Assembly: GCA_963777505.1 (NCBI GenBank) | Contig: CAVZQN010000003.1 | Span: 544,001-608,000 of the forward strand | Direction of reading: 5' to 3' | Length of the DNA: 64,000 bases | From: an uncultured bacterium | Lineage (GTDB): Bacteria > Acidobacteriota > HRBIN11 > JAKEFK01 | Part shown: positions 16,170 through 32,624 of the stretch, one piece after another | How positions within the stretch are numbered: position 1 is the stretch's first letter | Layout: every line of letters starts with the position of its first letter | Made by a program: the position numbers and the translations under genes | The notes under the pieces: generated by a model | What the model saw: only the letters and a program-made list of their open reading frames with translations | What the model was told of the DNA's origin: nothing | Database searches by the model: none

Positions 16170-16680
16170 ATAGACGCAGGGGAGCAGGGGAGAAAGGGAG
16201 CAGGGGTGAAGAGCGCGTGGGAGCGGTGGAGAAGGAGATCAAATGAAAAGAGGAATTCAGAGCCACCGCGAACTAGACGTTTATAAAATGGCCTTTGAGG
16301 CCGCTATGAAATTATTTGAAGTGACCAAAACTTTTCCTCCTGACGAAAAGTATTCTTTAACTGGTCAAATCCGTCGTGCTTCTAGATCAGTTTGTGCAAA
16401 TCTGGCAGAAGCTTGGAGAAAGCGGCGCTATAGAGCCGCTTTTGTAAGTAAACTTTGTGATTGTGAAGGCGAGGCTGCAGAGGTCCAAACTTGGATTGAG
16501 TTCGCAGTAAAGTGTAATTACGTAGAGAAAGCATCGGCTAAAACTTTGTATTTTGAGTATGACCAAATTATCGGAAAACTAGTAAGAATGATTAATTATC
16601 CAGAACCATGGGTTCTTCACGGCACCAAACCTTCCTAATCACCCCAGCTCCCCTGCTCCTCTGCTCCCCTGCAGGTCTAT
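16170..16680. repeat. Inverted repeat pair bracketing the four-helix-bundle gene
   Basis: Left arm 16170-16209 ATAGAC-GCAGGGGA-GCAGGGGA-GAAAGGGA-GCAGGGGT-GA. Right arm 16639-16680 is its reverse complement with 4 mismatches and a 2-nt bulge. Confidence 0.9.
16243..16638 (+). CDS. Four helix bundle protein (23S rRNA intervening-sequence protein family)
   Basis: HRELDVYK...FPPDEKYSLTGQIRRASRSVCANLAEAWRKR...EAAEVQTW signature. Confidence 0.92.
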   Translation: MKRGIQSHRELDVYKMAFEAAMKLFEVTKTFPPDEKYSLTGQIRRASRSVCANLAEAWRKRRYRAAFVSKLCDCEGEAAEVQTWIEFAVKCNYVEKASAKTLYFEYDQIIGKLVRMINYPEPWVLHGTKPS

Positions 16681-16712
16681 ACTACAAAAATAGTACTACA
16701 CGCACAATTGGT

Positions 16713-16741
16713 TTGACACTCTACGACCTTTTTATTACACT
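16713..16741 (+). promoter_or_regulatory. Probable sigma70 promoter of the kds operon
   Basis: TTGACA-N17-TACACT, 30 bp upstream of the kdsB start. Confidence 0.6.
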
Positions 16742-16770
16742 TAGGTGCGGTTTGAAGACGATGCTTTAGA

Positions 16771-17568
16771 ATGCTTCTTTCTGCAGTGGGCGTTATTCCG
16801 GCCCGATACGGATCAAGCCGCCTGCCAGGAAAACCTTTGGCAGATCTGCAGGGTAGGCCTCTCCTTTACCATGTCTATCACAGGGCTTGTAAAGCCAATT
16901 CATTGCGTGAAGTGTGGATAGCCACAGACGATGATCGTGTATTCGAAGTGGCTCAAGGTTTTGGAGCCCGGGTGGTAATGACTTCCGCGGGACACCGTTC
17001 GGGGACGGATAGAATTGCAGAGGCAATTGGAGAGATAGAGGCTGATATCGTCGTAAATATTCAGGGTGACGAACCATTAATTGACTTTGCAGCCATAGAT
17101 CATGCTGTAAATCTCTTGATTCGAGATAAAGACGCTGAAATGGCAACATTGAAAGCGCCAATCGATGATCCGGCAGATCTATGGAATCCAAATGTTGTTA
17201 AGGTCGTTGCTGATCAGCGCGGTTATGCTGTGTATTTTTCTCGAATGCCTGTTCCCTATCTTCGCAGAAAAGATCAACCTGGAGCGAGTCTACAGGAGAT
17301 TATTAAGAATGAGCCTTCTTTGCTCAAGTATTTTCACAGACATATCGGGTTATATGCATATAGACGCGAACTGTTGTTAAAATTTACAAAGTGGGCACCA
17401 TCTCCACTGGAACTGTTGGAGGATCTTGAGCAGTTGCGCGCGATTGAGCATGGAACGAAAATCAAAGTGGATGTATCATCGGCTGCAATATTTGGGGTTG
17501 ATACTCCTGAAGATCTGGAACGAATTCGACGACTGGTGCAGAAAAATCCAAAGCTTTTAGAAGCATAA
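16771..17568 (+). CDS. kdsB: 3-deoxy-manno-octulosonate cytidylyltransferase
   Basis: IPARYGSSRLPGKPL, SGTDRI, NIQGDEP, LEQLRA, VDTPEDL. Confidence 0.96.
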   Translation: MLLSAVGVIPARYGSSRLPGKPLADLQGRPLLYHVYHRACKANSLREVWIATDDDRVFEVAQGFGARVVMTSAGHRSGTDRIAEAIGEIEADIVVNIQGDEPLIDFAAIDHAVNLLIRDKDAEMATLKAPIDDPADLWNPNVVKVVADQRGYAVYFSRMPVPYLRRKDQPGASLQEIIKNEPSLLKYFHRHIGLYAYRRELLLKFTKWAPSPLELLEDLEQLRAIEHGTKIKVDVSSAAIFGVDTPEDLERIRRLVQKNPKLLEA

Positions 17569-17601
17569 AAAATGACTAATAAAAAAGGCGTGAGGTAAAG
17601 A

Positions 17602-30175: not shown

Positions 30176-30615
30176 CACCACGGAGTCACGGAGAGCACGG
30201 AGATAAAAATTCATAGGACTAATCGTCGTAATCCTTGTTTTAGAAAACGACATTTGAAGTTCAAGATTAAGCCGATATGGATGCCTGACATCTTAAGATA
30301 AGTAAGTAATTGCGCTTCATGAATTGGCAAGATTGTGTCCACATTCTTTATCTCAAGAATGACCTTATTACTGACCACAATGTCTATCCGGTAGCCATAA
30401 CTAAATTCCAAGCCCTTGTATTTCACTGGAAGCCGTCTCTGACGTTCAACTGTAAGACCGCAATTTCTTAGTTCATAGCAAAGACATTCCTCATAAATCG
30501 ATTCTAAGAGCCCAGGTCCTAGTGATCGATGAACTTCGATTGCCGCAGCAATTATTTTCTTAGTTAATTCTTCTTCATAAATCATTTTCTCCGTGCTCTC
30601 CGTGACTCCGTGGTG
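30176..30615. repeat. Perfect 28-bp inverted repeat pair bracketing GxxExxY gene 1
   Basis: CACCACGGAGTCACGGAGAGCACGGAGA (30176-30203) and its exact reverse complement (30588-30615). Confidence 0.95.
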
Positions 30616-30621
30616 GTTCAA
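30211..30621 (-). CDS. GxxExxY protein (PD-(D/E)XK nuclease-like)
   Basis: VHRSLGPGLLESIYEECL, YRIDIVV, LEIK, AQLLTYLK, GLILNF. Start is either TTG 30621 (coupled to the comM stop) or ATG 30585. Confidence 0.93.
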   Translation of the reverse strand: MNHHGVTESTEKMIYEEELTKKIIAAAIEVHRSLGPGLLESIYEECLCYELRNCGLTVERQRRLPVKYKGLEFSYGYRIDIVVSNKVILEIKNVDTILPIHEAQLLTYLKMSGIHIGLILNFKCRFLKQGLRRLVL

Positions 30622-32147
30622 TACTGGTCGATGGATCGATACTGGATAGCTTCGGATAAATACTGTGTTTTGATGTCGTTCGAACTATCTAAGTCGGCAA
30701 TCGTACGGGACACTTTCAGGATCCGATGATATGCCCGAGCACTGAGATGAAATTTTCGGATGGCTTTTTCCATGAGTTGCAAACAAGAATCATCCAGTTT
30801 GCAATATTGTTTGATTAATTTTGCCGGGATTTGTGAATTGCTGAACAATCGATGCTTGCGATACCTTTCGAGTTGAGTATTCCGAGCGTTACAAATGCGG
30901 GTGCGAATGAGTTGAGACGACTCAGACTCAAAATTTTCCGAAAGAAGTTCTTGCGACTTTACAGCCGGAATATCAAGATGAATGTCGAAACGATCCAATA
31001 ATGGTCCCGATATTCGCGCGAGATATCGCTGGAGTTGTTGGTTTGTGCACTTACAGCTACGATCCGGCACACCATAATATCCACACGGACAAGGATTCAT
31101 GGCACCCATCAGCATGAAACGGGATGGATATTCTACAGAACCTGAGGCGCGTGAAATTCGGATGGTTCCATTCTCAAGTGGTTGTCTTAGAATTTCCAAA
31201 ATGCTTTTGCCGAATTCTGGAAGTTCATCCAAAAACAACACACCATTATGCGCCAATGAAATCTCACCAGGCCGCGGATTACTTCCACCACCGGCTAATC
31301 CTGCATAACTGATTGTGTGATGTGGTGCGCGAAATGGTCTGCTGCGCATCAAGCCATCAGTGCCGAGTAATCCCGCAACGGAATACACTTTTGAAGTTTC
31401 AACAGCTTCTTCAAATGTGAGAGATGGCAGAATGCTTGGCACCCGTTGAGCAAGTAGAGTTTTACCGGCGCCGGGAGGTCCGATCATCAGGACATTGTGT
31501 CCGCCTGCCGCAGCGACTTCCAATGCACGTTTTGCATGATATTGTCCTTTCACTTCCGAAAAATCAACGGGATAATTCATGTTTGTGTTCTGATCAGTGA
31601 ATGGCTTTACCTGTAATTTTTCGATGCCTTCGCGTTTGCTTAAAAACTCAGCTGCTTCGATTAACGAATTGACTGGAAAAACACTGGCACCATCAATCAT
31701 GGCTGCCTCTGAAGCATTCTCACGCGGAATTAGAAGGTTAGGAATTCTCAGTTTTCTCGCGAGAATCACAAACGCAAGAATGCCACATACCGGCCGCACC
31801 CTTCCTTCAAGTGAAAGTTCGCCAAGAATTAAGAATTGATCGAAAGCAGGAGGTTTAATCTGATCTGAGGCAGCCAGTATTCCAAGTGCAATCGGTAAAT
31901 CGAAGTAAGGTCCTTCTTTTCGCAAATTCCCTGGCCCAAGATTGACCGTGATCGTACGGCTCGGGATGTAATATCCGCAGTTGCCGATTGCAACCCGGAC
32001 GCGCTGCTGACTTTCCTTTACAGCAGTATCCGGCAAACCAACCGTGAACCACTTTGAATCGACTCCGGTATAGCGTAATGCTACTTCCACATCCACACGA
32101 TGCGCATCCAGGCCATCCACACAACCACTAATCAACTTCGCTACCAT
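30618..32147 (-). CDS. comM: YifB/ComM Mg-chelatase-like AAA+ ATPase
   Basis: VGLPDTAVKES, GPPGAGKT, PFRAPHHTIS, PGEISLAHNGVLFLDE, AMNPCPCG, SGPLLDRFD. Confidence 0.95.
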   Translation of the reverse strand: MVAKLISGCVDGLDAHRVDVEVALRYTGVDSKWFTVGLPDTAVKESQQRVRVAIGNCGYYIPSRTITVNLGPGNLRKEGPYFDLPIALGILAASDQIKPPAFDQFLILGELSLEGRVRPVCGILAFVILARKLRIPNLLIPRENASEAAMIDGASVFPVNSLIEAAEFLSKREGIEKLQVKPFTDQNTNMNYPVDFSEVKGQYHAKRALEVAAAGGHNVLMIGPPGAGKTLLAQRVPSILPSLTFEEAVETSKVYSVAGLLGTDGLMRSRPFRAPHHTISYAGLAGGGSNPRPGEISLAHNGVLFLDELPEFGKSILEILRQPLENGTIRISRASGSVEYPSRFMLMGAMNPCPCGYYGVPDRSCKCTNQQLQRYLARISGPLLDRFDIHLDIPAVKSQELLSENFESESSQLIRTRICNARNTQLERYRKHRLFSNSQIPAKLIKQYCKLDDSCLQLMEKAIRKFHLSARAYHRILKVSRTIADLDSSNDIKTQYLSEAIQYRSIDQY

Positions 32148-32158
32148 AAATCCTCCTT

Positions 32159-32593
32159 TTAAGGGGCTTTTTTAACGCCGAGTACGCCGAGTAATTTTTT
32201 ATCCGGAAAGCCATTAACGATTCGGCTAATTCCCTGACGAAGTGACACAACATTGAAATTAATGAGCAGACCAACCTTACAATTCGAAAGTCTTAAATAA
32301 GAAAGAAGCTGTGCCTTATGAACAGGTAGGATTGACTCAATTGCTTTAACTTCAACAATGATTCTTTTTTGCACAAGCAAATCGATTCTGTATCCACAAT
32401 CAAGTCTTAGTTGATCAAATACAACAGGCAGTTGTTTTTGTTTCTCGACACACAATCCTTTTTTGATAAGCACATGAGCAAGACAGGCTTCATAAGCTGA
32501 TTCGAGTAACCCTGGACCAAGCTTGGTATGCACGTAAATCGCTCCCCCTATTATTTTTTCCGTGAGCTGATCTAGCTCTTCACTTTCATTCAT
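32159..32593 (-). CDS. GxxExxY protein (PD-(D/E)XK nuclease-like)
   Basis: VHTKLGPGLLESAYEACL, YRIDLLV, VEVK, AQLLSYLR, GLLINF. Confidence 0.93.
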   Translation of the reverse strand: MNESEELDQLTEKIIGGAIYVHTKLGPGLLESAYEACLAHVLIKKGLCVEKQKQLPVVFDQLRLDCGYRIDLLVQKRIIVEVKAIESILPVHKAQLLSYLRLSNCKVGLLINFNVVSLRQGISRIVNGFPDKKLLGVLGVKKAP

Positions 32594-32624
32594 CTAATAC
32601 CTCGGCGTACTCGGCGTTAAAAAA
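32168..32624. repeat. Perfect 24-bp inverted repeat pair bracketing GxxExxY gene 2
   Basis: TTTTTTAACGCCGAGTACGCCGAG (32168-32191) and CTCGGCGTACTCGGCGTTAAAAAA (32601-32624). Confidence 0.95.

Follow-up and report, generated by a model that had tools for sequence, protein, structure and literature searches.

Two described systems come closest to the subject of this analysis, a set of three small genes (cassettes 1, 2 and 3) that are each closed by inverted arrays of short tandem repeats, their arms, in a 64,000-nt stretch of the genome of an uncultured acidobacterium. This stretch (GCA_963777505.1, contig CAVZQN010000003.1, positions 544,001 to 608,000; G000:C3:544001-608000, where G000 is the source genome) is referred to as the window. 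The first system is the intervening sequence (IVS) of 23S rRNA genes. PMC4990558 describes such an IVS at helix 45 of Coxiella burnetii 23S rRNA, with a 28-bp terminal stem, tandem GACAGAT heptamers before the start of S23p and cleavage by RNase III inside the stem. The second system comprises repetitive extragenic palindromic (REP) elements and REPINs together with RAYT genes (Bertels and Rainey 2011, PMC3116915).

The cassettes resemble rRNA IVSs in being units of ~430-500 nt with terminal inverted repeats and a stem of at least 24 bp, in placing 7-8 nt tandem repeats between their outer end and the start codon, in having a Shine-Dalgarno (SD)-like purine tract in the stem and, for cassette 1, in encoding a protein of the PF05635 four-helix-bundle family. 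They differ in that they lie between protein-coding genes, that an unrelated gene, for a nuclease-fold protein, is the cargo in two of the three and that their arms are common to many gene-less hairpins, whereas it is for the Coxiella IVS that RNase III cutting is known. As in REPIN/RAYT systems, the gene is flanked by inverted copies of a short repeat that is dispersed as extragenic hairpin doublets, and several repeat groups occur per genome, each tied to its own gene. In contrast to those systems, no Y1/HUH transposase is encoded by the cargo (PF01797 matches two other genes of the genome and none of the cargo), a 7-nt core repeated in tandem makes up each arm in place of a single palindromic REP, and a second cargo family is without any catalytic domain.

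Literature searches returned no description of such cassettes outside rRNA. In the excerpts retrieved, mentions of GxxExxY, PDDEXK_3, PF13366 or TIGR04256 were incidental, those of IVS proteins, PF05635 or TIGR02436 did not touch on non-rRNA cassettes, and articles on the short tandemly repeated repetitive (STRR) heptamers of cyanobacteria were, judged by title, not relevant. A figure legend of a large clustering study lists '23S rRNA IVP', the IVS protein, among CRISPR-linked domains (PMC10910872); tandem heptamer arrays beside such genes might be taken for CRISPR-like repeats.

The gene-less hairpins, which had been missed in an earlier note on this DNA, move the closest analogy towards REPIN/RAYT-type systems. 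We favour the reading that the three units are gene-bearing copies of hairpin-forming repeat families, REPIN/RAYT-like in their relation to the repeats and IVS-like in build, and we give it an even chance of being right. The architecture and the excess of arms, their spread across phyla, the co-occurrence of gene and repeats, gain and loss with remnants, the placement of the cassettes and their predicted stem are shown below.

Inverted repeat arms around two gene families

The earlier note described three small genes closed by inverted repeats of tandem 8-9 nt units, and our recomputation of coordinates and pairing agreed. The cassettes and the host genes beside them are as follows.

16176 to 16209, plus strand: 5' arm of cassette 1, made of four GCAGGGGA-type units of 8 nt in tandem; pairs with 16639-16672 over 34 nt at 88%
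16243 to 16638, plus strand: gene of cassette 1, four-helix-bundle / 23S rRNA IVS-protein family, 131 aa (profile matches)
16639 to 16672, plus strand: 3' arm of cassette 1, its first base directly after the stop codon
16771 to 17568, plus strand: kdsB, host gene downstream of cassette 1 (profile match)
30176 to 30203, minus strand: 3' arm of cassette 2, pairing perfectly with 30588-30615 over 28 nt
30211 to 30585, minus strand: gene of cassette 2, GxxExxY family with a PD-(D/E)XK fold, 124 aa from the ATG at 30585 (profile, alignment, AlphaFold2 model)
30588 to 30615, minus strand: 5' arm of cassette 2, CACGGAG three times; 28 nt, perfect, beginning 2 nt past the yifB stop
30618 to 32147, minus strand: yifB, Mg-chelatase-like AAA ATPase, flanked by cassettes 3 and 2 (profile match)
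32159 to 32593, minus strand: gene of cassette 3, GxxExxY family, open reading frame (ORF) of 144 aa; the family match covers 32216-32569
32168 to 32196, minus strand: 3' arm of cassette 3, ending 20 nt ahead of the yifB start
32596 to 32624, minus strand: 5' arm of cassette 3, TTTTTTAA-CGCCGAG-TA-CGCCGAG; 29 nt, 93% complementary to 32168-32196

The arm units are GCAGGGGA in cassette 1, CACGGAG plus 1-2 nt in cassette 2 and CGCCGAG plus TA in cassette 3. When extended, the arms of cassette 2 (30176-30214 / 30577-30615) match at 90% over 39 nt, and the innermost unit of its 5' arm provides a GGAG 5 nt ahead of the ATG. Judging from the sequence, this gene likely starts at the ATG at 30585 rather than at the TTG at 30621. 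In cassette 3, 24 nt of the pairing are perfect and the ORF continues through its own 3' arm. The neighbours of all three cassettes are protein-coding genes, not a 23S rRNA gene: a 643-aa ORF and kdsB flank cassette 1, and an MltD-like gene, yifB and a convergent ORF flank cassettes 3 and 2. The position of the purine-rich arm at the 5' side of each gene, to which the earlier note had drawn attention, is uninformative, as any sequence followed by its own reverse complement reads with the same arm first on both strands.

Each locus was given the score of the best inverted match, without gaps, that its two flanks make with each other (match +1, mismatch -2). GxxExxY loci number three in the source genome, of which one has internal stops, and four-helix-bundle loci number five, of which one is interrupted by a TGA. 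Cassettes 1, 2 and 3 score 22, 24 and 21, and seven of the eight members of both families score 16-24. Scored in the same way, 1500 random intervals of 300-440 nt from the source genome had a mean of 8.05; the maximum of 14 was reached once, and none scored 16 or more. Arms are commoner around both families than around controls.

The same architecture was found in other genomes. GxxExxY genes are present in 9 of 20 relatives (10 of 21 genomes with the source genome), and 17 of the relatives' 23 loci score at least 12, three of the misses being gene fragments or a contig end. A cross-phylum set with one genome per species returned 80 GxxExxY loci from ~20 phyla, including contigs labelled Methanothrix and Methanophagaceae; 76 of these had enough flank to be scored. 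At least 12 was reached by 64 of them, at least 14 by 53 and at least 16 by 45, compared with 3, 0 and 0 of 145 displaced control intervals within the same loci. Nearly all of these arms repeat ACC-(A/G)C-N-(A/G)AG every 8-9 nt, and several low scorers keep one unit. The GxxExxY arms of different phyla are therefore variants of one conserved motif (core ACC-RC-NRAG).

In a sample of 121 genomes from the source genome's own phylum, 71 have PF05635, a tally that takes in two genomes flagged as unpublished (G058 and G035); a control search also turned up the family in Bacteroides thetaiotaomicron. From the sampled phylum 30 loci were returned and 28 could be tested; 26 score at least 12 and 24 at least 14, as opposed to 1 and 0 of 55 displaced controls. 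Their arms consist of tandem 6-8 nt units, mostly heptamers, with diverse sequences (AGGGATC, TAGGCAT, GGGACCT, GGCAGAT and others). The unit GGGGACT in one arm (locus L138) is what we take to be the complement of the STRR1 repeat.

Terminal inverted repeats that are present or absent between relatives would also be expected if the cassettes were ordinary insertion sequences, miniature inverted-repeat transposable elements or integron cassettes of unusual look. Profile searches found no known transposase or integrase domain in the cargo proteins, which matched only PF13366 or PF05635, and the absence of a transposase noticed on first reading of the window is upheld to that extent. No direct repeat (target-site duplication) was seen beyond the arms at the cassettes or at 29 listed hairpins; the outermost TTAA/TTNAC...GTNAA of these hairpins is part of the inverted repeat itself, and the intergenic flanks between relatives are too diverged for the insertion target to be rebuilt. 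Such elements would also fit poorly with the ~50% identity among the source genome's own copies and with repeats on both sides of single dispersed genes, instead of one recombination site per arrayed cassette. We consider this explanation highly improbable. Its integron variant was dropped on anatomy alone (two-sided arms, single dispersed units), without an integrase search.

Gene-less hairpins and turnover among relatives

The repeats of the window had been called private to each gene, which proved wrong. The arms of cassette 2, including their linker pattern (CACGGAG-T-CACGGAG-RR-CACGGAG), recur in 12 listed gene-less hairpins, and in 16 the cassette 3 arms recur with their TTTTTTAA...TTAAAAAA flanks. 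The GCAGGGGA array of the cassette 1 arm also recurs, with 23 copies in the source genome and 0 in four relatives. In the listed gene-less hairpins the loops are rich in A and T, and conservation is far lower there than in the arms. Arrays of at least two GxxExxY-type units number 320 forward and 356 reverse in the source genome, against 110 and 122 in a control in which the genome was reversed without being complemented, and convergent array pairs at most 1500 nt apart number 100 against 6. Gene-less hairpins of the GxxExxY arm type with a spacer of at most 120 nt number 69. Intergenic positions account for 61 of the 69 (crude coding fraction 0.87), and positions between divergent genes are somewhat depleted (8 observed against 14.4 expected, p = 0.04).

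On both strands, a T-run precedes and an A-run follows the stem in the hairpins of the cassette 3 type (the 16 gene-less ones and 32168-32624 in the window). This order is the reverse of that in a bidirectional terminator, as if termination were avoided.

Exact two-unit motifs were counted on both strands of the source genome and of four relatives, of which G001 belongs to the same genus and G002, G003 and G004 to the same family. Counts are given in the order G000, G001, G002, G003, G004.

CGCCGAGTACGCCGAG: 18, 1, 0, 0, 0
GCAGGGGAGCAGGGG: 23, 0, 0, 0, 0
CACGGAGTCACGGAG: 28, 9, 0, 9, 1
CACAGATGAACACAGAT: 0, 0, 26, 13, 7
CACGAAGNNCACGAAG: 15, 57, 27, 0, 64

Control patterns, the same motifs read backwards, gave 0-1 matches. 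Genes within matching arms were found in G000 for CGCCGAGTACGCCGAG, GCAGGGGAGCAGGGG and CACGGAGTCACGGAG, in G002 and G004 for CACAGATGAACACAGAT, and in G001 and G002 for CACGAAGNNCACGAAG. Gene and cognate repeats co-occur per genome, and the fit is good but not exclusive.

Relatives also provided sites without the cassettes, a comparison that the earlier note had asked for. Orthologues of yifB occur in all five relatives compared, with YifB 73% identical. The nearest named YifB homologues, at 91% identity, bear the label of Acidobacteriota metagenome-assembled genomes. G001 keeps the order of the source genome (MltD-like gene, yifB, convergent downstream gene) and is without either yifB cassette, the gaps measuring ~100 nt against 553 nt and 4 nt against 428 nt in G000. 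The flanks of its yifB are gene-free and hold ~27-nt mini-hairpins built of outer arm units. G004, which belongs to another genus, has both yifB cassettes at the same positions, and G006 has at least the upstream one. The simplest history is one of old presence followed by loss in G001, which left the outer arms behind. The arm core upstream of yifB differs among positional orthologues (CGCCGAG in G000, CACGGAG in G004 and G006), through either concerted change of all units in both arms or replacement of the cassette.

In G002 and G004 the same two flanking genes are separated by gaps of 163 and 127 nt without cassette 1, the cassette on the kdsB side, and the cassette gave no match in G001, G003 and G006, whose upstream region differs. 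Among the genomes compared it was found only in the source genome. Its arm array is likewise absent from G001-G004, so that gene and repeats appear together in the G000 lineage.

The abundance of these repeats leads to an explanation in which the hairpins came first. They would be REP-like elements, tolerated by or useful to the host and spread by another enzyme or by recombination, and the genes would have been captured in their loops or would home into them. For every gene-bearing hairpin there are more than 20 without a gene, as this explanation would have it, and it would also accommodate the hairpins nested in the loops of others (four stems at C1:96309-96699), the AGATTTC-family hairpin with an unrelated 72-aa ORF and the same genome's pair of RAYT-like Y1_Tnp genes, enclosed by inverted repeats of their own, which are described in the last section. 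Random capture predicts no constant pairing of arm and cargo, however, and the arm type is constant per cargo family across phyla (CRCNRAG every 8-9 nt for one, heptamers for the other). The closeness of the arms to the ORF (median distances of 7.5 nt at the ATG end and 7 nt at the stop codon) also speaks against capture, and we judge the explanation to be quite unlikely.

The encoded proteins, placement and transcript folding

Profile searches placed the cargo proteins in the families named on first reading, far above cut-offs. The cassette 1 protein matches PF05635 at 100.9 bits (cut-off 33.8) and TIGR02436 at 96.4 bits (cut-off 24), and it matches Protein Data Bank (PDB) entry 2gsc, the pentameric Xanthomonas protein XCC0516 with five chains in the entry, at E 2.6e-12. 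Its fold class is that of Avd of diversity-generating retroelements, and its matches to Avd profiles are weak (E 2.3e-4 and 1.3e-4) and below cut-offs (NF033474, 21.4 bits against 80; PF22296, 22.8 against 40). The proteins of cassettes 2 and 3 match TIGR04256 at 148.4 and 142.5 bits (cut-off 35) and PF13366 (PDDEXK_3) at 144.2 and 138.3 bits (cut-off 22).

GxxExxY relatives from other phyla are 48-66% identical, and positional orthologues are 60-66% identical with saturated synonymous divergence (dS). In an alignment of 18 sequences, G25, E28, Y31, D68, E78 and K80 are invariant, the last three being those of the PD-(D/E)XK motif. The AlphaFold2 model has a restriction-endonuclease-like fold (pLDDT 91.4). 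It reaches VIA Z 8.1 both to 3ijm (rmsd 3.2, 97 aligned) and to the Cas4 protein SSO0001, 4ic1 (rmsd 3.6, 99 aligned), and Z 6.7 to the Holliday-junction resolvase Hjc, 1gef (rmsd 3.2, 86 aligned), values near 8 lying in the tool's range common for models without a clear match. A Foldseek search with the model gave nothing at E <=0.001, the best match being Hjc with DNA (E 3.9e-3), and a search of PDB sequences with the profile gave nothing at E <=1. The predicted fold resembles that of Cas4 and archaeal Hjc, with D, E and K invariant, at a sequence identity of only 15-17%. These matches establish a nuclease fold and not a specific function.

Several database GxxExxY proteins (P0067, P0076, P0114, P0116) have N-terminal extensions such as QRHGGTE and HRGTEE. 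These are likely start-codon miscalls in which the 5' arm, with its CACGGAG/CACAGAG units, has been translated.

Under the favoured reading, the units are of two types. In type 1 (cassettes 2 and 3), a GxxExxY protein of 124-144 aa with a PD-(D/E)XK fold is flanked by inverted arrays in which 8-9 nt units stand 2-4 times in tandem; their 7-nt core (CRCNRAG, with ACC or AAC at its opening) is conserved across phyla. In type 2 (cassette 1), a four-helix-bundle protein, 23S-IVS / Avd-like, is flanked by inverted arrays of 7-8 nt units with a lineage-specific sequence. Each gene-bearing copy shares its arms with gene-less hairpins and solo arrays of the same genome. The encoded protein may recognise its own arm repeats, folded as a hairpin or cruciform; the GxxExxY nuclease would cut at them, spreading or maintaining the hairpins, and the helix-bundle protein, a pentamer ring in a relative, would bind the heptamer array. 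At the RNA level, the stem could spare an operon any polar effect of the insert, and cleavage of the stem by RNase III, as in rRNA IVSs, is probable.

Placement was assessed for 85 GxxExxY cassettes that have arms and whose neighbours could be called. Cargo and upstream neighbour are co-oriented in 72 of these, cargo and downstream neighbour in 57. Because the arms are symmetric, the informative comparison is that of tandem sites, at which both neighbours point in the same direction; there the cargo agrees in 48 of 52 cases (p = 1e-10). Median distances are 7 nt from the end of the upstream ORF to the arm, 7.5 nt from the arm to the ATG and 7 nt from the stop codon to the 3' arm. The helix-bundle cassettes gave a weaker result, with co-orientation at 8 of 10 tandem sites. 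The predicted RNA fold closes each of the window's three transcripts by a terminal stem (z -6.4, -6.6 and -4.6 for cassettes 1, 2 and 3), and in cassette 2 the predicted stem pairs the arms and covers the SD sequence (GGAG) and the AUG. Placement and predicted stems fit read-through transcription from the host gene. Promoter-like sites were at or below expectation (4 found against a shuffle mean of 5.0, and 1 against 1.2).

These results bear on the possibility that the cassettes are purely RNA-level units, in which the stem is cut by RNase III in a read-through transcript and the role of the proteins is unrelated to the arms. Cutting would free a small mRNA from the host operon and would control its translation by burying or removing the SD sequence. 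The terminal stems predicted for all three transcripts, the covered GGAG and AUG of cassette 2, the co-orientation at tandem sites a median of 7 nt behind a stop codon and the non-terminator order of the cassette 3 type hairpins all favour such units, as does the cleavage in the Coxiella IVS stem, which PMC4990558 reports as shown by experiment. Selection for the stem in the sense transcript would be expected to make arm mismatches of the G:U type commoner than those of the A:C type. The excess seen was not significant: 99 against 85 on the sense strand of 88 GxxExxY cassettes (p 0.34) and 38 against 25 in 30 helix-bundle cassettes (p 0.13), the combined p of 0.10 being a weak trend. Mismatches in GxxExxY arms fall mostly in the 1-2 nt linkers and the 7-nt core is retained, a pattern that a repeated recognition motif fits better than a plain duplex; the same holds for a core kept across phyla with linkers often unpaired. 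Units of this kind also leave dozens of gene-less hairpins and lineage-specific expansions unexplained, and we regard them as unlikely. Among the sequencing runs searched, one DNA run shared 0.07 of the words of this DNA, and no RNA run contained it. The view of the earlier note that these are ORF-in-hairpin cassettes stands as regards real, widespread families of IVS-like design, but arm mismatches gave no significant signal of a stem at the RNA level.

Several observations weigh against the favoured reading of gene-bearing copies served by their own proteins. The action of either protein on the arms is so far a prediction, and the arm mismatches, with no significant G:U excess, lend the RNA half of the reading no support. 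The four-helix-bundle protein lacks a catalytic domain although its cassettes show the same behaviour, and the hairpins may therefore be moved by something other than the cargo. Among themselves, the source genome's three GxxExxY copies are only ~50% identical, which indicates no recent burst of the gene-bearing form, and the missing target-site duplication counts here as well. One of the genome's own eight loci (C10:81249-81557) scores 9 and, like 12 of the 76 cross-phylum GxxExxY loci, has no clear arms. Some hairpin families occur in genomes in which no gene was found in such arms, namely CACGAAG in G000 (15), CACGGAG in G001 and G003 (9 each) and CACAGAT in G003 (13). The genomes compared are kin and partly fragmented, so their motif counts are not independent, and co-occurrence would also be expected if the gene-bearing copy were a mere member of a hairpin family moved otherwise.

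A wider claim is that both protein families are sequence-specific partners of their own tandem-repeat hairpins and form a widespread class of repeat-plus-gene elements, free of HUH and DDE enzymes, in bacteria and in metagenome-assembled contigs labelled archaeal. We put it forward tentatively, as a real possibility with the balance lying against it. If true, ORF-bearing rRNA intervening sequences would be one special insertion site, two very large families of 'unknown function' would gain a substrate, and the unexplained tandem heptamer repeats of cyanobacteria might be accounted for. Few uncharacterised small proteins of bacteria are as common as those of the GxxExxY and four-helix-bundle families (in a word-based search, 7997 of the best 8000 candidates lay at E <=1e-5), and a tie to hairpin repeats would offer each family a concrete, testable substrate. 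Such a tie would connect rRNA intervening sequences, a puzzle for 30 years, with a genomic element of general occurrence and add a repeat-plus-gene system parallel to REPIN/RAYT but with different proteins. In practice, arrays of this kind lie as punctuation in operons, may be taken in error for operators, terminators or CRISPR-like repeats, and give annotated proteins spurious N-terminal extensions.

Solo arrays and other repeats

Arrays of two GxxExxY-type units without an inverted partner also lie between host genes of the window.

21024 to 21038, plus strand: solo array ACC-GCAAAG-A-CGCAAAG, directly before the ORF of a KdsC-like HAD phosphatase (21043-21573)
21575 to 21589, plus strand: solo array of two GxxExxY-type units, in direct orientation with 21024-21038 around the KdsC-like ORF
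22472 to 22486: solo array in reverse form, after a PilZ-domain ORF (21593-22423, minus strand)
32635 to 32649, 37024 to 37038 and 58939 to 58953: further solo arrays between host genes

Near the first of the last three, a long hairpin with a T-run follows the MltD-like gene (minus strand, ~32696-32650); it was read by eye, and the terminator scan gave no call. An 83-nt imperfect inverted repeat (54886-54968 / 57609-57691) was considered as a further cassette and ruled out, being the 5' region of inverted paralogous genes. These paralogues are FHA / sigma-54-activator genes (53634-55052, minus strand, and 57552-58937, plus strand), with a Ser/Thr-kinase-TPR gene (55199-57559) between them.

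Elsewhere in the source genome, four nested hairpins at C1:96309-96699 (locus L156:110-500) give a single-strand DNA fold with z -16.2. The outermost has CGCCAAG arms; inwards follow CACGGAG-type arms, an inverted repeat of GATTGGATCGTTGCCGATTT and, innermost, a palindrome. The inner element also lies within CACGGAG-type arms at C3:207361, C6:356762, C2:18611, C4:194022 and C1:689954.

A hairpin of AGATTTC heptamers at C4:1768730-1769230 holds a 72-aa ORF without a Pfam match in place of a four-helix-bundle gene. A unit search with GATTTCAG returned no hairpins because this family has a 7-nt period (AGATTTC), and its copies come from a genome-wide scan for inverted repeats.

Two IS200-like Y1_Tnp genes (PF01797, E 6.9e-10 and 9.3e-14) lie at C4:954047-954889 and C4:1855938-1856623. 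Both sit in their own inverted repeats of 35-42 nt, and the repeat of the former flanks other genes too, so that classical RAYT/REP-like systems coexist with the cassettes studied here. Another repeat of the genome is a small palindrome, TAGCCCCCGGCGTAAGCCGGGGGT, paired ~107 nt apart in units of ~155 nt; at least 14 pairs were found, for example at C1:32943-33098 and C3:613461-613615, outside the window.

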